Sequence record: OL615012
Strand: one strand, 5' to 3'
From: Shigella phage vB_SboM_Phaginator
DNA: 64,000 nucleotides
The position numbers and the translations under genes are program-made. How positions within the stretch are numbered: the stretch's first letter is position 1; each line of letters opens with the position of its first letter. The notes under the pieces are model-generated. The model saw only the letters and a program-made list of their open reading frames with translations. It searched no databases and was not told the DNA's origin. Shown here piece by piece: positions 1 to 7,138 of this stretch.

Positions 1-391
1 TTTCAATGAACGTGTACCATATCCCAGATAATATTGCTGCTGTAAAAATATTAACAAGTATGGTTAAAATAATCCAATCTCCCGTTCTGTCTACTGGACT
101 TTCTCCAAAGAAGCAAAATACAAATGATGTCACAGGAAAACTAATAATATACCACAGAATCATAATCTTATCTGTGAACCAATCAGTGTTCGTTAATTTA
201 GCGCGACCATTATGAATACACACGAATTTATCATCTGTTGCAGTAGATGGCTTAACTGGTTGATATCCCATTCTAAACTCCCTAATCAGCAAATTTTTCA
301 TATCTTCGGAACAGCCATTCCAGTCAACTCTATCAACTGGAATGCCATCATCCCCATCATCTAAATCATACCAGCGAGTTTTTAAAATCAT
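1..391 (-). CDS. hypothetical membrane protein, 5' part only (gene continues beyond window start)
   Basis: Open frame from ATG at 391..389 to window edge; ATG overlaps stop of upstream ORF (ATGA); hydrophobic segments in translation. Confidence 0.4.
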   Translation of the reverse strand, partial: MILKTRWYDLDDGDDGIPVDRVDWNGCSEDMKNLLIREFRMGYQPVKPSTATDDKFVCIHNGRAKLTNTDWFTDKIMILWYIISFPVTSFVFCFFGESPVDRTGDWIILTILVNIFTAAILSGIWYTFIE

Positions 392-750
392 TTAATTTTC
401 CTACAATCACTCACAAACTCTTCCATTGATTCTTTTTCAATATAAGACATGTAGCTATTATATTCTTTTAATTGTATTTTGTAATCTTTTTTTCTTTGCC
501 AATTTATTTTAAAATTATCATAATGAAAATATAACATGATACCAAAGAATGAAAATAATGAAATAATTTTAGTATAGTGAAGTTCACTCCAAACTTCTAT
601 TATATTTACTGTGCCGTCAATGTTTAAAATAAGACAGTCAATTAACAATCCAAAAAGACTACCCGCAAGAGCTGCAGCCAACGCCACAGCAAAAATTAAA
701 AATGACTCAGAAAGCGAATATTTGACTTTATTTAGTTTTGGCTTTTGCAT
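388..750 (-). CDS. hypothetical small membrane protein
   Basis: 120-aa ORF, ATG start; two hydrophobic helices (LIFAVALAAALAGSLFGLLI, IISLFSFFGIMLYF). Confidence 0.5.
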   Translation of the reverse strand: MQKPKLNKVKYSLSESFLIFAVALAAALAGSLFGLLIDCLILNIDGTVNIIEVWSELHYTKIISLFSFFGIMLYFHYDNFKINWQRKKDYKIQLKEYNSYMSYIEKESMEEFVSDCRKIK

Positions 751-1124
751 CGTGATTCCTTAACAAATTTCATAATTTCATCAAATTCATACGCAGCAAG
801 TTTAAGCTGGTGTTCCTTTTTAATCTTTTCACACTGTGCTTTCCAATCACGTACGCGTTTACGATAATGTCTTCCTTGATACCAGTATCCTACCCAATTT
901 ACAGGTACTAATAAAAGTGGAACTATTAATGGAAGAATTAGCATTAATACCAGTATTTCGCCAGAATCAATATCAGTCATAACATCTAAAACACCTCCAA
1001 TAATCAATAGAATTACAAATGATATGAGTATAACAGGACCTATTAATACATCAGTAGAAATTATCTGACGCTTTAATTCATACTTTAAGGGTTTACTTGG
1101 AAGATACATTGATGGCTTTGACAT
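732..1124 (-). CDS. hypothetical membrane protein
   Basis: 130-aa ORF, ATG start; long hydrophobic core (VLIGPVILISFVILLIIGGVL, LVLMLILPLIVPLLLVPV). Confidence 0.5.
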   Translation of the reverse strand: MSKPSMYLPSKPLKYELKRQIISTDVLIGPVILISFVILLIIGGVLDVMTDIDSGEILVLMLILPLIVPLLLVPVNWVGYWYQGRHYRKRVRDWKAQCEKIKKEHQLKLAAYEFDEIMKFVKESRCKSQN

Positions 1125-1701
1125 ATTCTCTGCATTCCTTCACAAATTTTTCTAGTAATAAATCGCTTTCAAAATTGGGATTTTCTACGAATTTATCAAA
1201 AAGATCATCAACAATAGTTAAGATATTCTTTTTACTAAGAATACGCTTATTTTCATGCTTAGTTTCAGAATCAACTATAAGAGTAAAGAAATATTTCTTG
1301 TCCCGAAATTTTACAGTAGTATCAATATAGAATAAATTTGACTTTTGTAAATTACGTTTAAACCATGCATCACTTAAACTATAAACGCCGAGATAATCAT
1401 AATCGTCGTTTAAATAACAAACCGTCCATTCAGGAGAAACAAAATCAGTAAATTCAACGTCAAAATCGCATGTTAATAAATGAATTGATTCAATGCTGTT
1501 AATAAGTATTCCAGGACGTATTAAAGACTTTTTACCTCTAGAAAATCTTCCAGAAAGACTTTCATCAGTTTCATATGAAGAACCCCAATAATAATTACGC
1601 CCTTCTGCCATACGTTTAAGAGCATTTAATAATTGGTCTGGAACATCAACTTGTCTTTGGAACTCTTCAAACATTGAATTGAAATCACTTTGCATTTTCA
1701 T
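1093..1701 (-). CDS. hypothetical protein
   Basis: 202-aa ORF with ATG start; no family recognised by eye. Confidence 0.5.
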   Translation of the reverse strand: MKMQSDFNSMFEEFQRQVDVPDQLLNALKRMAEGRNYYWGSSYETDESLSGRFSRGKKSLIRPGILINSIESIHLLTCDFDVEFTDFVSPEWTVCYLNDDYDYLGVYSLSDAWFKRNLQKSNLFYIDTTVKFRDKKYFFTLIVDSETKHENKRILSKKNILTIVDDLFDKFVENPNFESDLLLEKFVKECREYVKAINVSSK

Positions 1702-1722
1702 TCCTACTTACTCCAAGTAATA

Positions 1723-1736
1723 GGGGCCGAAGCCCC
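1723..1736. other. GC stem-loop GGGGCCGAAGCCCC (intergenic hairpin)
   Basis: Perfect 5-bp stem with CGAA loop between two minus-strand ORFs; same 14-mer recurs at 43083 and 63814. Confidence 0.4.
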
Positions 1737-1742
1737 TTATCA

Positions 1743-2336
1743 TTATTTCAGAGAATTAATATATTCCTGAACATCGGCAGAGGTAGTTTCAACCCCAGAA
1801 ATATTGCCATTAAAGGTTTCAACTCGGGCAAGAGTATCTTCAATATCAACCTTAGTCAGTGCTGCAATTTCAACTACATCATCGGCAGTACTAATTCCAA
1901 GGGCATTTGCCGCACGAGTTTCACGAATATATTCCAATTTAACTGCAAGTTCTTGGCGAGCATCATCTAACTCAACTACTTTCTTGGCGATTTCAATTCG
2001 CATTTCAGCATAACCGTCAGCTTTAGTAGTCAACTGCTCAGCTGTTCGGCGATATAGTAAACCGAGTTTAGCATGCATTGTTACATCTTGACCTTCGGAA
2101 AGAAGTTTTCGAATTTCACGCTCTTTTGATTCGGCCTGTCGATTCTTTTCGATAACAAGTTCACGAATACGTTTTTCTTCATTAATAGATTTAATAGAAG
2201 CAGTTTTTAGATCTTTAATTTTATCAAGTAGTTTTGCTGCTGCAGCAGTATACTGTTCTTCAACAGATAGATTTTTAGCCATAGCAGAACCAAGTTTAGT
2301 GCGAATAAACTCAACAATTTTCTTCAGTGTGTTCAT
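1743..2336 (-). CDS. hypothetical coiled-coil protein
   Basis: 197-aa ORF, ATG start; charged, Ala/Glu/Lys-rich sequence typical of coiled coil. Confidence 0.55.
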
Positions 2337-2393
2337 AGTATTTCCTTAGATTGATACAATTAGATAATATCACGTTTTTAATAGATTGTAAAC

Positions 2394-2729
2394 TTATTCT
2401 TCGTCTATCTCATCGATAAAGACGTCAATGGCCTCGATAACGGCATCATTGATAGCCAATAAAGTAAAATCATCGTCAGTACCTTTATAAGATTCTGAAG
2501 CATTGATATATGCTTGATTGACGAGTTCCCAAGCCTTTTTAAAATAAGGAGTTTCATCATCAGGACAAATATCCCGCACACCTTCAAAGATACGATTGGC
2601 ATAATCTAACACCCATTGTACAGGCATGTTTTGAGAACGTTCGTTAAACTCTTTAAATTCCTTAGATTCAAAAAGCTCTTCAGGATAATAATTTCGATTA
2701 CAAAAAGCTTTACTAAAGTTACGTTTCAT
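2394..2729 (-). CDS. hypothetical acidic protein
   Basis: 111-aa ORF; AGGAG upstream of ATG; acidic C-terminus (IDEIDEE). Confidence 0.55.
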   Translation of the reverse strand: MKRNFSKAFCNRNYYPEELFESKEFKEFNERSQNMPVQWVLDYANRIFEGVRDICPDDETPYFKKAWELVNQAYINASESYKGTDDDFTLLAINDAVIEAIDVFIDEIDEE

Positions 2730-2784
2730 AATGTTCTCCTCAAGCTACAGGCTCATAATATCTCAATCATGAGCCTGTGTAAAC

Positions 2785-3048
2785 TTATTTCATATTATTG
2801 AAATATTCTTCTGCGATTTCGTCGTTATCATGGTAAACTTTAGAAGACAGTTTAACATAACCTTCAGCAGTGAACATGTTAATCACAACTTTTACAGTAT
2901 ACCACTGACCGTCTTCATTACCCATTACTGCGTAAGTTTCAAACATCGGATGGTCAGGACCGATAACTTTAATATCATTCACTGTACGACCGAAATCTTC
3001 TGAAACGCATTTCATAAAGAAGTTGAACAGTTCGCCGTAATTATCCAT
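2785..3048 (-). CDS. hypothetical protein
   Basis: ORF track frame 2785..3060 begins with TTG; preferred ATG at 3048 preceded by GGAG. Confidence 0.5.
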   Translation of the reverse strand: MDNYGELFNFFMKCVSEDFGRTVNDIKVIGPDHPMFETYAVMGNEDGQWYTVKVVINMFTAEGYVKLSSKVYHDNDEIAEEYFNNMK

Positions 3049-3091
3049 TTCATTCTCCAAGTTGTTTTCTGTATCAGTAGTTGATAGTTGT

Positions 3092-3121
3092 ATAGTACCA
3101 TGGAAGAACAGGGATGTAAAC
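3092..3121 (-). promoter_or_regulatory. putative T4-type early promoter (GTTTACA-N17-TACTAT)
   Basis: Minus-strand -35 GTTTACA (3115-3121) and -10 TACTAT (3092-3097) with 17-bp spacer, upstream of ORF 2785..3048. Confidence 0.35.
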
Positions 3122-3253
3122 AGTTTTGTGAAAAAATTTTTAAAAAGTTTTGGGGAATTCTAGGGCGGGAGGGGCAATTAAAAGATAGGATAATATATTA
3201 TAAAGGGTAGAAACTAAATGATGTCTAGAGAGGCCTGGAAAGGCCTAGATACC

Positions 3254-3278
3254 AAAAAGCCCTATCATTTAGATAGGG
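3254..3278 (-). terminator. rho-independent terminator downstream of ipIII-like gene
   Basis: 7-bp stem CCCTATC/GATAGGG with 5-nt loop, followed on minus strand by U5. Confidence 0.5.
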
Positions 3279-3288
3279 ATTTAAAATT

Positions 3289-3855
3289 TTATTTACCCAG
3301 TTTAGTTATTATAGCTTCGGCAGCAGCTTTTAGCTTAGATGCAGTGTTAATACGATTTTTAATTTCAGTATACGCATCGCCAAGAACATCAAGGCTATCT
3401 GAATAAACACTTACACTATTGCGTTCGCTATTTGAAATAGAACCTTTAGTTTTACGATCAAAATCGGTATACACGTCTTGAAGATCGCGTGCTGCCTTCT
3501 TTGCATCATCCAATGCATCAAGAGCTTTATTCAAAGCATTAACATATTTTTTAGTGTCAAACATATTCTTAGAAATTTTGACGGGTGCGCGTTCAGGAGT
3601 AGCTAAGGCAGATTTAGGAAGAACCTGTTTGCCAGATGCCAGTTTCTTAGAAATTTTAAAAAACGCTTTATTGAAATTATTTTCTTGACTCATCGTAAAA
3701 GAACTATTATCAATGTTATACATTTCAATAGCTTTAGCTTTCCACTTAAGAAAATCGCCACGGTCTTTTGGATCCAAGTGGAAGAATACTTTAGTAAGAT
3801 CTGCTTCAGATGGTAATTTTGCTGCTTCGGTTAAAAATTCGGCGTAGGTTTTCAT
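3289..3855 (-). CDS. ipIII: internal head protein, IPIII-like (capsid-targeting sequence MKTYAEFLTE)
   Basis: 188 aa; N-terminus matches T4 internal-protein capsid-targeting sequence with L-x-E protease site. Confidence 0.65.
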   Translation of the reverse strand: MKTYAEFLTEAAKLPSEADLTKVFFHLDPKDRGDFLKWKAKAIEMYNIDNSSFTMSQENNFNKAFFKISKKLASGKQVLPKSALATPERAPVKISKNMFDTKKYVNALNKALDALDDAKKAARDLQDVYTDFDRKTKGSISNSERNSVSVYSDSLDVLGDAYTEIKNRINTASKLKAAAEAIITKLGK

Positions 3856-3938
3856 TTAAAATCCTTGAAATAATTTATTGGTTATTAATTATTTATCACG
3901 TTGTTATATGTAACAGCATTCTCCGAGCGATTCAAACT

Positions 3939-3965
3939 AAAAAGCCCCAACCTTTCTGTCGGGGC
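3939..3965 (-). terminator. rho-independent terminator after internal protein gene
   Basis: Minus-strand RNA GCCCCGAC-AGAAAG-GUUGGGGC followed by U5. Confidence 0.6.
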
Positions 3966-3972
3966 TAAAATG

Positions 3973-4446
3973 TTATTTAATTTGCTTAGCAGACCAAATG
4001 CGGTCTTTGATAATTTTTTGGATGTCTTCAACATATTCAAGAGAGTGAACATGTGGGTTATCTTTGAAACTATAAGCACGAGCTAGCTTTTGGCCTTCGG
4101 TTTTGATTACTAAAAGCTCTTTAAGGATAGCTTCATATTTGGAGATAATTCCTTTAACAATATTTTTCTCTTGTGCGACTTTAGGATCTGCTTTAGGAGC
4201 AGGTTTACCTGAAGCCTTTGCAAAAGCAGCTCCAGTAGCAACTAAACTTTTCCAGGCCATACTAACTGCATTCCCTGTAAATCCTTCCGCTTTCATATCG
4301 CGAGCAAATTGGAATCGTGATTCATCGGAAGCATCTTTATAGGAATATTTACCCGCGGCAATGGCAGCTTTTGCAACAGCTTGAATTTCGGTGCTAGATG
4401 CTTCATTTAACACCGCTTCATTTAAAAATTGAGCATATGATTTCAT
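3973..4446 (-). CDS. internal head protein (capsid-targeting sequence MKSYAQFLNE), ipII position
   Basis: 157 aa; N-terminal MK(T/S)Y-x-F-x-E motif with L-N-E cleavage site; late promoter upstream, terminator downstream. Confidence 0.6.
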   Translation of the reverse strand: MKSYAQFLNEAVLNEASSTEIQAVAKAAIAAGKYSYKDASDESRFQFARDMKAEGFTGNAVSMAWKSLVATGAAFAKASGKPAPKADPKVAQEKNIVKGIISKYEAILKELLVIKTEGQKLARAYSFKDNPHVHSLEYVEDIQKIIKDRIWSAKQIK

Positions 4447-4482
4447 CTTATTTCCTGTTTTAATTCGTGGTTTTAATATACT

Positions 4483-4490
4483 TATTTATA
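4483..4490 (-). promoter_or_regulatory. T4 late promoter box TATAAATA
   Basis: Exact TATAAATA on minus strand about 37 bp upstream of the ATG at 4446. Confidence 0.5.
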
Positions 4491-4492
4491 CT

Positions 4493-4519
4493 AAAAAGCC
4501 CCAACCTTTCGGTCGGGGC
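4493..4519 (-). terminator. rho-independent terminator at end of tRNA/stable-RNA operon
   Basis: Near-identical copy of the hairpin at 3939-3965 (one mismatch), followed by U5 on minus strand. Confidence 0.6.
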
Positions 4520-4523
4520 TAAG

Positions 4524-4836
4524 CCTTGCGGCAACCTTGTCGGGGTTCCACCTGCTAAGGCAAGTGTTTGTACGAAACGCCGGGATTCGAACCCGGTTAT
4601 TAAGCAGTTGACGCTACTCAATATTTTTAAAAGGCCATATCTCGACCATATCCGAACGTTCCGTCAAAAACGCTACTCGGTTTACGGCAAAGATATTTCC
4701 TCGAATCGATAATTCGATGCGCCGTTTCTGCTGTGATGTAAGGGGGCATTAACCGATCGTAAAGATTTGTTAATGCCAGTCCTTACCCAGGGAACATCAG
4801 TCCGACGACTTGCCGGTAGCGACCCGGCTTCTTGTC
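4524..4836 (-). ncRNA. structured non-coding RNA region downstream of tRNA-Arg (possibly T4 RNA C / RNA D-like stable RNAs)
   Basis: About 310 nt between tRNA-Arg and terminator; no ORF; several hairpins and a T-arm-like motif CCGGGUUCGAAUCCCGG (4580-4596) but no full cloverleaf. Confidence 0.3.
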
Positions 4837-4912
4837 TGGTCGAGGCAGTAGGGATCGAACCTACGACCTAGGACTTAGAAGGTCCTTGCTCTTCCTTCTG
4901 AGCTATGCCTCG
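4837..4912 (-). tRNA. tRNA-Arg (anticodon UCU)
   Basis: Cloverleaf on reverse complement: D-arm GCUCAGAAGGAAGAGC, anticodon loop CUUCUAA, T-arm GGUUCGAUCC, encoded CCA. Confidence 0.85.
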
Positions 4913-4916
4913 TATT

Positions 4917-4991
4917 TGGCGGACGTGATAGGATTCGAACCTATAACCAATCGCTTAACAGGCGATCGCTCTGCCATTGAGCTACACATCC
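4917..4991 (-). tRNA. tRNA-Asn (anticodon GUU)
   Basis: Reverse complement GGAUGUGUAGCUCAAUGG...; anticodon loop CUGUUAA; T-arm GGUUCGAAUCC; encoded CCA. Confidence 0.8.
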
Positions 4992-4995
4992 AAAT

Positions 4996-5082
4996 TGGTG
5001 GGGAGTGATGGAGTCGAACCACCCGAGTCGCAATGACAATGGATTTACAGTCCACACCGCTACCTCTACGGGATAACTCCCC
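4996..5082 (-). tRNA. tRNA-Tyr (anticodon GUA), long variable arm
   Basis: 87 nt; anticodon loop CUGUAAA; long variable arm; T-arm GGUUCGACUCC; encoded CCA. Confidence 0.75.
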
Positions 5083-5094
5083 TAATTCATAATT

Positions 5095-5169
5095 TGGTGG
5101 CCCTGGGTGGAATTGAACCACCATCTGGCGATTATGAGTCGCTTGCTTGAACCTTCCAGCTACAGGGCC
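5095..5169 (-). tRNA. tRNA with anticodon CAU (Ile as in T4, or Met)
   Basis: Anticodon loop CUCAUAA; T-arm GGUUCAAUUCC; encoded CCA; Ile assignment by analogy with T4 tRNA-Ile. Confidence 0.7.
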
Positions 5170-5170
5170 T

Positions 5171-5246
5171 TGGTGCTGATTGACGGAATCGAACCGCCGA
5201 CCTTCTCATTACAAGTGAGTTGCTCTACCTACTGAGCTAAATCAGC
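5171..5246 (-). tRNA. tRNA-Thr (anticodon UGU)
   Basis: D-arm GCUCAGUAGGUAGAGC; anticodon loop CUUGUAA; T-arm GGUUCGAUUCC; encoded CCA. Confidence 0.85.
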
Positions 5247-5251
5247 AAAAC

Positions 5252-5341
5252 TGGCGGAGGCGATAGGATTTGAACCTATGAGTCGCCGGAGCGACTGCCG
5301 GTTTTCAAGACCGGTGCATTAAACCACTCTGCCACGCCTCC
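5252..5341 (-). tRNA. tRNA-Ser (anticodon UGA), long variable arm
   Basis: 90 nt; GGAGGCGUGGCAGAGUGG...; anticodon loop CUUGAAA; long variable arm; T-arm GGUUCAAAUCC; CCA. Confidence 0.85.
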
Positions 5342-5347
5342 AAATAT

Positions 5348-5956
5348 TTATATATTGTTAATTTGATTTAGAATTCTTTTTGCTTGAGTATGACTTACGC
5401 CAATATGCTTAGCATATTTAGACAATTCGCCACGTTTAGAAAAATCATATAATTTAGAAATTTCTATTCTTCTTTTTCTTTCATCCGCAGAAACTTTTGC
5501 TTCGTTTGCTTTTGCTATTTTACGTTTAGCTTCTTGAGAATGAGTTTTACCAGCAAAGCCATTCTTCATTAATCCATTTGAAGACCATCCTTTTAATTTT
5601 CCGTTAGAATGTGCCTTTTTAACACCCAATGAAATTAATTCGCGTTGCTGATCTGTCATAGGATAATTATTTATATGATCCCATCCACCTTCACCTCCAA
5701 GTTTTAAATTATACACATCTGGTCTATTTAAAAACTCTTCTGTGACAATATTTTTCTCGGCTTCAAGCATAGATTCTTTATCGTCAAAATACTCTAATAT
5801 TTCTTTAGAAAAATTTTCTATACCATATTTATCTTGGGCTCTTTTTAATAATTTACCAGAACCCATATATCCATCATCTAAATTTTCGGTAGAATGCACA
5901 CCAATATAAATTTTATTATTAATTTTATTTGTTATTTTATAAAGATAAAAATGCAT
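5348..5956 (-). CDS. segB: GIY-YIG homing endonuclease, SegB-like, embedded in tRNA operon
   Basis: GIY-YIG motifs (FYLYKI...KIYIGVHS, YMGSG); track ORF 5348..5998, preferred ATG at 5956 preceded by AGGGA. Confidence 0.8.
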   Translation of the reverse strand: MHFYLYKITNKINNKIYIGVHSTENLDDGYMGSGKLLKRAQDKYGIENFSKEILEYFDDKESMLEAEKNIVTEEFLNRPDVYNLKLGGEGGWDHINNYPMTDQQRELISLGVKKAHSNGKLKGWSSNGLMKNGFAGKTHSQEAKRKIAKANEAKVSADERKRRIEISKLYDFSKRGELSKYAKHIGVSHTQAKRILNQINNI

Positions 5957-6002
5957 ATCAGTCCCTAATAAAGAACTGAGCGTCTCACGACGAGTCATAA
6001 AT

Positions 6003-6076
<74 letters not shown>

Positions 6077-6081
6077 AAATT

Positions 6082-6170
6082 TGGTGCGAGAAGTGGGACT
6101 CGAACCCACAAGGAAATCATTCCGCAGCATTTTAAGTGCTGTGCCTTTACCAATTTGACCATTCTCGCGC
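6082..6170 (-). tRNA. tRNA-Leu (anticodon UAA)
   Basis: 89 nt; anticodon loop CUUAAAA; long variable arm; T-arm GGUUCGAGUCC; CCA. Confidence 0.9.
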
Positions 6171-6242
6171 TGGGAATAAAGGACTCGAACCTTTGCATCC
6201 TGGAATCAAAATCCAGTGCCTTACCAACTTGGCTAATTCCCA
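6171..6242 (-). tRNA. tRNA-Gln (anticodon UUG)
   Basis: Anticodon loop UUUUGAU; T-arm GGUUCGAGUCC; directly abuts tRNA-Leu; 3' CCA not obviously encoded. Confidence 0.8.
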
Positions 6243-6328: not shown

Positions 6329-6844
6329 TTAAAGCAAATTAAACATTTTAACAGTCGGCAAAACAATTTCTTTTTCTATATAAGAGTATTTAACACTCTC
6401 AACTACACGCAAAAAATCATAATCATAATACTCAGAAGCACTGCCTAAAATATTAATAAGTCCTTCAAGCACTTTATTACCATTCACAAAGAATAAGTCA
6501 AATACACGTTCTTCGTCTTCTTCGGATTTATTACCAAGGTCAACTTCTATGTCAAAGACCTTTTTAATGAATTCTGGATAAAGTTGTTCTGAGAACAGTC
6601 CTTCAACCAAGTATTCATAAATAAAAAGCGATTGCTCGCTGAACAAGCCATTACCACAATAACGTTCAGCTTTAGTACTAGAATGTCTGCTTTTAAACTT
6701 CTTTAAAAGATATTGGAATTGTAAGATTTCATGCTCTTCTACGCCAAACAGTGTTTTAGTTTTATAGTTGTCACCATCATTTTCCCAGGTAGTGACATCA
6801 ATTACGTAACCCTGTGGAATTGTAGTACCTAAACAAATATTCAT
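6329..6844 (-). CDS. hypothetical protein
   Basis: 171-aa ORF, ATG start; internal duplicated GLFSEQ motif; no family recognised. Confidence 0.5.
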   Translation of the reverse strand: MNICLGTTIPQGYVIDVTTWENDGDNYKTKTLFGVEEHEILQFQYLLKKFKSRHSSTKAERYCGNGLFSEQSLFIYEYLVEGLFSEQLYPEFIKKVFDIEVDLGNKSEEDEERVFDLFFVNGNKVLEGLINILGSASEYYDYDFLRVVESVKYSYIEKEIVLPTVKMFNLL

Positions 6845-6847
6845 TTT

Positions 6848-7138
6848 TCACCACGCTGCATTAATATACGTTTTCTGAATACATTCAAGACCCAAAGGAT
6901 TCTTGAAAATATCATATTCAAGAGGACCTTTTTCTGTTTCAATAAAGAAATCAAAATTTACTGTATTAAATTTATGGTCTTCCTTCACTAATTTAACTTG
7001 AGAAGATGAACGGTCAACATAAACCTTTTCAACTTCAAAACATGTTAAAACACCATAATCATCAATCAAGGCTTTAGCCGCGTCTTGATCATATTTATAT
7101 CCATTTTCAATTGATGATACTTTAGCATAAAGAATCAT
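6848..7138 (-). CDS. hypothetical protein
   Basis: 96-aa ORF, ATG start, 3-bp gap from neighbours. Confidence 0.5.
   Translation of the reverse strand: MILYAKVSSIENGYKYDQDAAKALIDDYGVLTCFEVEKVYVDRSSSQVKLVKEDHKFNTVNFDFFIETEKGPLEYDIFKNPLGLECIQKTYINAAW

Follow-up and report, generated by a model that had tools for sequence, protein, structure and literature searches.

The left end of the 64,000-nucleotide stretch of Shigella phage vB_SboM_Phaginator analysed here (sequence record OL615012; hereafter the window) carries seven minus-strand open reading frames (ORFs) within positions 1-3060, which are almost certainly one-to-one orthologues of phage T4 genes e.2 to e.8. Profile comparison and structural modelling indicate that e.6 very probably belongs to the PspA/ESCRT-III superfamily. 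The gene directly downstream, e.5, is probably linked to it functionally, and the small membrane proteins e.4, e.3 and e.2 that follow share with e.5 a C-terminal motif. The best overall explanation of the block, that of an e.2-e.8 region containing a module comparable to the Psp system, has evenly balanced chances of being correct. The link of e.6 to PspA for T4 itself, the e.5 partner, the membrane paralogues and the motif are new here; the PspA call itself is known for the protein family (phrog_1203) to which e.6 belongs.

The block corresponds to T4 e.2-e.8

ORF calling recovered the seven frames at essentially the positions given in the first-pass annotation (Table 1), with two adjustments. 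The frame at 1-391 exists, as a 5' fragment whose remainder runs off the start of the window, and the frame called at 2785-3060 is real, its start lying more likely at the ATG at 3048, which is preceded by GGAG and yields the 87 residues of the T4 protein, than at the TTG at 3060. The same annotation had found no recognisable family for these ORFs; this does not hold, since each has an orthologue among T4 e.2-e.8 and matches one PHROG at E values of 1e-54 to 5e-108 (e.2, phrog_2203, 1e-58; e.3, phrog_2330, 1e-59; e.4, phrog_2604, 2e-70; e.5, phrog_2607, 5e-108; e.6, phrog_1203, 3e-87; e.7, phrog_7266; e.8, phrog_2678). Six of these PHROGs are labelled 'unknown function' and that of e.2 'membrane protein', and scans of all seven proteins against Pfam, NCBIfam and PADLOC returned nothing above noise.

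At the DNA level, 663 phage records were matched, nearly all from Tequatrovirus and its relatives at 90-97% identity. A phage record annotated with T4 gene names labels e.2, e.3, e.5 (fused with e.4), e.6, e.7 and e.8, and places nudE and e just outside the window edge. In T4 (NC_000866, T4p125-T4p131; UniProt P32273, P32274, P39222-P39226), the order and strand of e.2-e.8 and the lengths of e.3-e.8 are identical, the overlaps and PHROGs are shared, and the block likewise lies, in matching order and orientation, between nudE/e and the tRNAs (clustered at window positions 4840-6242). Amino acid identity to the T4 proteins is 82.5% for e.2 (over 97 residues), 90% for e.3, e.4 and e.7, 92.6% for e.5, 98% for e.6 and 98.9% for e.8. 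T4 e.2 is a truncated form of 102 residues, whereas the window e.2, over the part that is covered, follows the two-transmembrane type of 162 residues found in relatives, with which it shares 85-95% identity.

The first-pass description of the proteins largely stands. Kyte-Doolittle scans predict two transmembrane (TM) segments in the e.2 fragment, two in e.4 and one clear segment in e.3, in agreement with three small membrane proteins, and none in e.5, e.6, e.7 or e.8. The two small proteins described as acidic have isoelectric points of 4.29 (e.7) and 4.46 (e.8), and the 197-residue protein described as a coiled coil is modelled as a long helical hairpin. The overlapping stops and starts are also borne out: from the coordinates, successive genes along e.5-e.4-e.3-e.2 overlap by 32, 19 and 4 nucleotides, the last (e.3/e.2) in the form ATGA. 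Because the four genes are joined in this way, translational coupling is suggested.

Data from T4 describe the block as early, expressed and dispensable in the laboratory. In the supplements of a time-resolved omics study (PMC9697503, supplements 4 and 6), e.2-e.8 are all listed as early RNA and all detected as protein, with e.4, e.5, e.7 and e.8 in the early protein class, e.2 and e.6 in the middle class and e.3 in the late class. The supplements of a T4 CRISPRi-ART study give the function of e.2-e.8 as 'Unknown', their prior essentiality as 'UNKNOWN', and 'Not Fit' in the guide rows for these genes (PMC11879866). Under T4 e.6 and similar names, nothing was found in the main texts of the literature; the information sits in supplements. 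The first-pass annotation had regarded the block as early accessory genes without assigned function, a view to be given up if the T4 orthologues, genes of the e.1-e.8 class being named as an example, had known functions or left no transcripts or proteins; they are expressed, and are listed without a function.

The e.6 protein resembles PspA and Vipp1

Homologues of e.6 occur in T4-like phages of Escherichia, Klebsiella, Serratia, Yersinia, Pectobacterium and Aeromonas, at identities down to 47%. An AlphaFold2 (AF2) model built from a 30-sequence homologue alignment comprises helices at residues 3-22, 25-80, 86-145, 165-175 and 186-196, with a predicted local distance difference test score (pLDDT) of 75 overall, about 90 in the hairpin and below 50 in the first helix. 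This arrangement is that by which the ESCRT-III fold is recognised, a long alpha1-alpha2/3 hairpin followed by shorter helices. When the model was compared with the PDB using Foldseek, ranks 1-8 were all Vipp1/IM30 (probability 0.99-1.00, E 1e-3 to 2e-2), followed by the archaeal ESCRT-III protein CdvB2. In BFVD, the matches beyond orthologues included a giant-virus 'Snf7 family protein' and a 'PspA/IM30 family protein' of Acinetobacter phage ME3.

Profile-profile comparison points in the same direction. A 58-sequence e.6 profile aligned by hhalign with an alignment of E. coli PspA, Synechocystis Vipp1 and E. coli YjfJ at 94% (P 1.4e-7, score 52.4, 191 columns, residues 1-197 against 1-201), and at 90% (P 1.7e-6) when 31 PspA sequences were added. 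A genome-contig search to broaden the PspA profile brought in only close enterobacterial PspA. Reversed PspA alignments gave 0.3% and 1.8%, the helical internal-protein-like proteins of the window gave 0.2%, and 60 column shuffles scored 11.7 ± 1.7, with a maximum of 16.8. Cyclic rotations of the alignment recovered the same register every time, and the e.6/PspA alignment is colinear from residue 1, covering both alpha0 and the hairpin tip. The poorest alignment of e.6 is that with YjfJ (0.8%), and the 30-sequence e.6 alignment matched single E. coli PspA only over a short C-terminal stretch (0.5%). Searching with an e.6 profile in hmmsearch placed Vipp1 colinearly (4-143 against 4-145), at E values of only 1.8-4.4.

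The N-terminal helix may correspond to alpha0, the amphipathic membrane-binding helix of the bacterial members. Its hydrophobic moment (muH) is 0.45 in e.6, compared with 0.42 in PspA and 0.57 in Vipp1, and averages 0.43 across the family against 0.25 for shuffled sequences, for a helix (3-22) modelled at pLDDT below 50. Hydrophobic positions 4, 7, 8, 10, 11, 15, 18 and 19 are conserved and in register with PspA, and distant family members begin MGILSRIKEF or MGIKSFF, comparable to MGIFSRF of PspA. Further likenesses to PspA/Vipp1 (IM30)/ESCRT-III proteins (PF04012, PF03357; PDB 4WHE, 7O3W, 6ZVR) are a length near their ~200-220 residues, a tip of the alpha1-alpha2/3 hairpin at 80-85 and, near residue 170, a short and conserved 'ARxExF'-like stretch. 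Unlike these proteins, e.6 lacks the KAEDPxK motif of alpha0/alpha1 and falls below every Pfam threshold, and its family is closed and confined to phages. Overall, e.6 very probably belongs to the PspA/ESCRT-III superfamily.

The assignment to PspA is already in print for phrog_1203, the PHROG that e.6 matches: Gp_125 of the Salmonella Kuttervirus SeF3a was found homologous to PspA by pdb70 comparison, and the annotation 'phage_shock_protein_A' was proposed for phrog_1203 in 2022 (Int J Mol Sci 2022, PMC9409062). That study treats the gene as a peculiarity of one Kuttervirus, present in SeF3a alone among the paper's Kutterviruses and in 4 of the 15 Kuttervirus genomes in PHROGs; T4 e.6, its partner e.5, the paralogous membrane proteins and the motif are absent from it. 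No paper linking the PspA assignment to T4 e.6 was found, and the reviews and surveys found on PspA/ESCRT-III evolution do not discuss phage-encoded members; a pspA-like gene has previously been noted in jumbo gut phages.

The family is far wider than that report states, spanning about 1,000 records of Straboviridae and Ackermannviridae. With one distant e.6 member as query, tblastn matched 1,014 of 50,697 phage records, and with the Ag3 member it matched 184 records at E ≤ 1e-10, among them the Ackermannviridae Vi01, SFP10 and Ag3. Contrary to the reported rarity, tblastn located close e.6-like copies in many Ackermannviridae, Vi01 and SFP10 included; gene calling or clustering may account for the rarity. 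The GenBank record of Klebsiella phage vB_KpnM-VAC36 names its e.6 orthologue 'shock protein A transcrption regulator'. Other names attached to e.6 orthologues ('host specificity protein', 'tail completion protein' and 'putative ABC-type phosphate transport system') have no support in any finding made here.

e.5 accompanies e.6 in every locus surveyed

Gene neighbourhoods were surveyed in 40 IMG/VR loci encoding an e.6 relative, using tblastn, ORF calling and iterated hidden Markov models (HMMs). An ORF of the e.5 family, intact or fragmented, immediately follows e.6 in every one of the 40, starting 40-60 nucleotides after it, and is duplicated in tandem in three Aeromonas-type loci. Membrane proteins of the e.3/e.4 type are present in 30-33 of the 40 loci in 1-4 copies, mostly right after e.5. 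The genes e.7 (9 of 40 loci) and e.8 (12 of 40) are found sporadically. In some very close relatives (loci L005, L007 and L010, at about 6600-7000), e.7 is absent between e.8 and e.6, and L010 carries other small genes there. We infer that e.7 and e.8 are separate, sporadic genes of the early accessory kind, each served by a promoter-like site of its own.

A distant Morganella phage has td (thymidylate synthase) inserted after e.6, and two ORFs with e.5-type FVxxC tails lie beyond it, one of which matches the e.5 profile (E 2e-5). The e.5 family evolves very fast (12-22% identity), keeping N98, F186 and C190. An alignment-seeded search for e.5 homologues yielded only 29 proteins, PDB sequence searches gave nothing significant for e.5, e.6, e.7 or e.8, and the AF2 model of e.5 (pLDDT 54) was too poor for a fold search. 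Homologues of e.5 carry the precomputed Pfam accession PF26876.1, which the Pfam copy scanned here, without a match for e.5, does not contain. A functional link between e.6 and e.5 is likely, if a little less so than the superfamily assignment of e.6.

Small membrane proteins and a shared C-terminal tail

The e.3 protein has one clear TM segment (19-37) and a second (57-75) that passes the Kyte-Doolittle threshold in the T4 orthologue; its basic helical C-terminal tail, which is probably cytoplasmic, ends FVSDCRKIK. In e.4, TM segments are predicted at 31-49 and 57-75, and the tail ends FVKESRCKSQN. The two proteins have the same architecture: a short, basic N-terminus leads into a hydrophobic hairpin region, and the tail is helical and basic. 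Direct BLASTP between them was not significant, and their paralogy is proposed because iterated HMMs join them, profiles built from orthologues only align on the tails (hhalign 48%, E 2e-4; reversed control 0.9%) and the architectures agree. The window e.2 consists of a soluble N-terminal part of about 70 residues followed by two TM segments (76-94 and 106-124), and the full-length e.2 of relatives has, after this extra N-terminal domain, a TM hairpin and tail like those of e.3 and e.4, ending NNFITECRKLK. On weaker evidence, e.2, e.3 and e.4 appear to form one predicted 2-TM family. The T4 form of e.2 (locus L003, 4153-4461), with one TM segment, can be set beside the longer form with its second TM segment and FITECRKLK ending in two relatives (L006, 8943-9431; L008, 4227-4715). 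The name 'putative sulfurtransferase', given to e.3/e.4 in phage Kelasse, is unsupported by any finding made here.

Full-length e.2, e.3, e.4 and the soluble e.5 all end in F-[IV]-x-x-C/S-R (FITECR, FVSDCR, FVKESR and FVKECR, respectively). In a loose form, the motif lies within the last 25 residues of 40 of 48 e.5-type, 42 of 68 e.3/e.4-type and 16 of 29 e.2-type proteins, compared with 34 of 1043 other ORFs. Although the motif overlaps in part with the ribosome-binding site of the next gene, Aeromonas-type e.5 proteins keep it. Downstream of the e.6-like gene, Ackermannviridae encode a TM-anchored protein of about 180 residues and tiny single-TM proteins; the tails of these proteins have the form [IV][IV]xxAR[KGS]. 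Examples are LIVHNARKRRK, HIVSKARGRRK, IIISQARSRTRQ and KIVEQARKEQK in Shigella phage Ag3 (L047, 4137-5177) and Erwinia phage phiEa2809 (L048, 4194-5691).

A possible Psp-like module and its alternatives

PspB and PspC of E. coli, and LiaI for LiaH in B. subtilis, anchor PspA-type proteins to the membrane. As in those systems, small membrane proteins of bitopic or hairpin form are encoded beside the PspA-like gene, and they could recruit its product by their cytoplasmic tails. The layout pspA-pspB-pspC is paralleled by e.6, e.5 and then e.4/e.3/e.2. Tentatively, and at somewhat less than an even chance, the conserved core of the block may be a phage-encoded Psp-like module for membrane maintenance with anchors of this kind. 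With its amphipathic N-terminal helix alpha0, the e.6 protein would attach to the inner membrane, and with its helical hairpin it would polymerise like PspA/Vipp1, limiting proton leak; it would thereby seal the membrane and sustain the proton-motive force once T4 has shut off the host. A PspA-like protein of its own would be needed by T4 because host transcription is shut off and the psp response presumably cannot be induced. The e.5 protein would regulate or chaperone e.6, while e.4, e.3 and e.2 would anchor or recruit it to the membrane through their F-[IV]-x-x-C-R tails, so that e.5 and the membrane proteins would serve e.6 as PspB/PspC or LiaI serve PspA/LiaH.

A broader version remains doubtful. 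It holds that T-even and Vi1-like phages carry a Psp-like envelope-stress system, composed of an ESCRT-III-superfamily polymer of e.6, e.5 as its dedicated soluble partner and a variable complement of small membrane proteins, with all partners docking via F/I-[IV]-x-x-C/A-R. The system would maintain an energised inner membrane after host shut-off or defeat depolarising abortive infection (Abi), and might also be the activity, long sought, by which the membrane is resealed after T4 DNA injection.

The parallel with cellular systems is one of layout. No PspF, PspB or PspC homologues lie beside e.6, its neighbours belonging to other families, and between PspB/PspC/LiaI and e.5/e.4/e.3/e.2 there is no detectable similarity; the partnership with e.6 is suggested by gene order and motif only. 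The E. coli yjfIJKLM operon offers a second comparison, encoding the PspA-family protein YjfJ, the DUF2491 protein YjfK and the DUF350 membrane protein YjfL. In E. coli K-12 (L045, 5134-8026), yjfJ is followed by the 219-residue soluble YjfK and then the 132-residue membrane protein YjfL, which reproduces the size pattern of e.6-e.5-e.4. Comparisons by hhalign of e.5 with YjfK/YjfI and of e.3/e.4 with YjfL gave nothing above 5%, and profiles of e.2-e.5, e.7 and e.8 reached at most 16% against E. coli PspB, PspC, PspD and PspE. The proposals that e.5 is a homologue of YjfK/YjfI, and e.3/e.4 of YjfL, PspB or PspC, were dropped, as hhalign shows no relation.

Several results weigh against the Psp-like reading. 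Neither Pfam PspA_IM30 (PF04012) nor Snf7 (PF03357) matches e.6, and even at E ≤ 10 the 30 e.6 relatives gave only coiled-coil noise in Pfam, with PspA_IM30 and Snf7 absent. A HMMER search of 1.84 billion representatives with the e.6 profile returned a closed, phage-type family of 45 proteins, mostly of about 200 residues, with no longer cellular-type proteins and no bridge to cellular PspA. The hhalign signal needs a diverse profile, falling to 10% with the less diverse 30-sequence e.6 profile. The alpha0 helix is modelled at pLDDT below 50, and only 20% of the family exceeds the 95th percentile of shuffled muH. No similarity to PspB, PspC, PspD, PspE, YjfI, YjfK, YjfL or YjfM was seen for the proposed partners e.5, e.3 and e.4. 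The C-terminal motif partly coincides with the Shine-Dalgarno sequence and start of the overlapping next gene, and its counts are descriptive rather than independent events, since the families are internally homologous. Finally, the 'Not Fit' label in the CRISPRi-ART supplement can be read as knock-down without a fitness defect under laboratory conditions.

Among the alternatives, the one that survives best, though it is unlikely, makes e.6 and e.5 a specific anti-Abi factor against depolarising or permeabilising defences (Rex-type, AbiZ-type or TM effectors of cyclic-oligonucleotide-based anti-phage signalling systems, CBASS) rather than agents of general upkeep. An anti-Abi role has been hypothesised in print for the phrog_1203 protein (PMC9409062), and the first-pass annotation had also thought of anti-defence genes. 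Moreover, these early accessory genes can be dispensed with in a laboratory host poor in defences, and they are located in a plastic region; the low identity among e.5 proteins, the partners downstream, is as expected under an arms race. A housekeeping-like role nevertheless fits better with an e.6 that is 98% identical to that of T4 and distributed over about 1,000 records in two phage families, and no anti-defence or defence family was matched in the PADLOC, Pfam, NCBIfam and PHROG searches.

Less probable still is that e.2-e.4 act alone, unrelated to e.6, as Imm/Sp/rI-type factors in superinfection exclusion or lysis timing, an analogy with Imm and Sp that the first-pass annotation had drawn. 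Like T4 Imm and Sp, which are small early envelope proteins of T-even phages, e.2-e.4 are small early inner-membrane proteins, relatives carry anything between 0 and at least 4 copies, as for exclusion genes, and the e.3 protein of T4 accumulates late according to a supplement of PMC9697503. The analogy does not extend to homology: no Imm or Sp PHROG was matched, and hhalign of e.2, e.3 and e.4 against T4 Imm, Imm.1 and Sp gave at most 15%, over the hydrophobic TM stretch. Imm lacks a cytoplasmic helical tail and the FVxxCR motif, and Sp is periplasmic. Knock-down without fitness effect, as the CRISPRi-ART supplement (PMC11879866) can be read, also speaks against such a role, though that assay would not show exclusion. 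The position of e.2-e.4 beside e.5 in most loci, and the C-terminal motif that they have in common with it, point to a shared partner and away from independent action.

It is about as improbable that e.6 is a generic coiled coil convergent on PspA, in a block of unrelated leftovers without joint function: the absence of a link to PspA in Pfam and HMMER, the coiled-coil noise among Pfam matches of e.6 relatives and the independent coming and going of e.7 and e.8 would fit this, but reversed PspA (helical periodicity kept) and column-shuffled PspA, both with composition kept, score 12-20 against 46-52 for the real alignments, the alignment runs colinearly from residue 1 through alpha0 and the hairpin tip in a register that survives every rotation, Foldseek ranks Vipp1 first, and the strict e.6-e.5 adjacency is not what a miscellany predicts.

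Regulatory anatomy and neighbouring genes

Sequence inspection indicates that e.8, e.7 and e.6 are each preceded by their own early-promoter-like site (Table 1). The one upstream of e.8, GTTTACA-N17-TACTAT, is present on the minus strand where the first-pass annotation had placed it. The pattern GTTTAC-N16-19-TAnnAT occurs 4 times in the window against 1.2 expected (5 of 100 shuffles reach 4), and 3 of the 4 sites fall exactly in the gaps upstream of e.8, e.7 and e.6. Phage JB75 has an annotated promoter at the place homologous to the e.7 site.

Between e.6 and e.5 lies a C(UUCG)G tetraloop hairpin, GGGGCUUCGGCCCC, with a 6-bp stem; the 46-nucleotide stretch around it has a minimum free energy of -13.5 kcal/mol (z -1.9). 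T4 has the identical sequence, as seen in a CRISPRi-ART guide (PMC11879866 supplement). The hairpin may stabilise the 3' end of the e.6 message or partly end it (attenuation), which would place e.6 in excess over its partners, as expected for a polymer-forming protein. No Rfam families were found in window positions 1-4700.

Table 1. Positions of the e.2-e.8 orthologues and of predicted regulatory elements in the window.
Feature	Position	Strand	Description
e.2 orthologue	1..391	-	5' 130 codons only; ATG at 391; the window edge cuts the rest
e.3 orthologue	388..750	-	120 aa; small membrane protein
e.4 orthologue	732..1124	-	130 aa; 2 TM
e.5 orthologue	1093..1701	-	202 aa; soluble
e.6 orthologue	1743..2336	-	197 aa; probable PspA/Vipp1/ESCRT-III-superfamily protein
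e.7 orthologue	2394..2729	-	111 aa; acidic
e.8 orthologue	2785..3048	-	87 aa; acidic; ORF call extends to TTG at 3060
C(UUCG)G tetraloop hairpin GGGGCUUCGGCCCC	1722..1737	-	between e.6 and e.5; no U-tract
Early-promoter-like site, e.6	2364..2393	-	GTTTACA-N17-TATTAT; TG-extended
Early-promoter-like site, e.7	2755..2784	-	GTTTACA-N17-TATTAT
Early-promoter-like site, e.8	3092..3121	-	GTTTACA-N17-TACTAT

Two paralogous internal-protein (IP)-like genes (3289-3855 and 3973-4446, both on the minus strand and both phrog_2280) lie between e.8 and the tRNA cluster. The block is transcriptionally downstream of them, not upstream as the first-pass annotation had put it. They occupy the position that rnaC/rnaD hold upstream of e.8 in T4, where ipII/ipIII sit between denV and e. 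Their N-termini (MKTYAEFLTEA and MKSYAQFLNEA) resemble MKTYQEFIAEA of T4 IPII/IPIII, at an overall identity of only 30-38%. Each is followed by one of two near-identical terminator hairpins, AGCCCCGAC(A/C)GAAAGGTTGGGGCT plus TTTT (3943-3966 and 4497-4520, minus strand), and another site resembling a terminator, the third, precedes the promoter-like site of e.8 closely, at 3260-3278.

Significance

T4 is the best-studied lytic phage, and its genes e.2-e.8 have remained 'hypothetical' since the genome was sequenced. The main gain is an interpretation of e.6/e.5 and e.2-e.4 that is concrete and can be tested in T4 itself; its functional part we infer. Should it fail, the block stays a set of conserved, expressed and dispensable early genes. 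If e.6 truly works as a protein of the PspA/ESCRT-III type, a viral branch of the oldest membrane-remodelling superfamily is widespread, occurring in about 1,000 sequenced Straboviridae and Ackermannviridae. The e.5 protein and the motif-bearing membrane proteins would then be a new partner set for such polymers, and how a phage keeps the membrane of its shut-off host energised until lysis would become testable in a tractable system.

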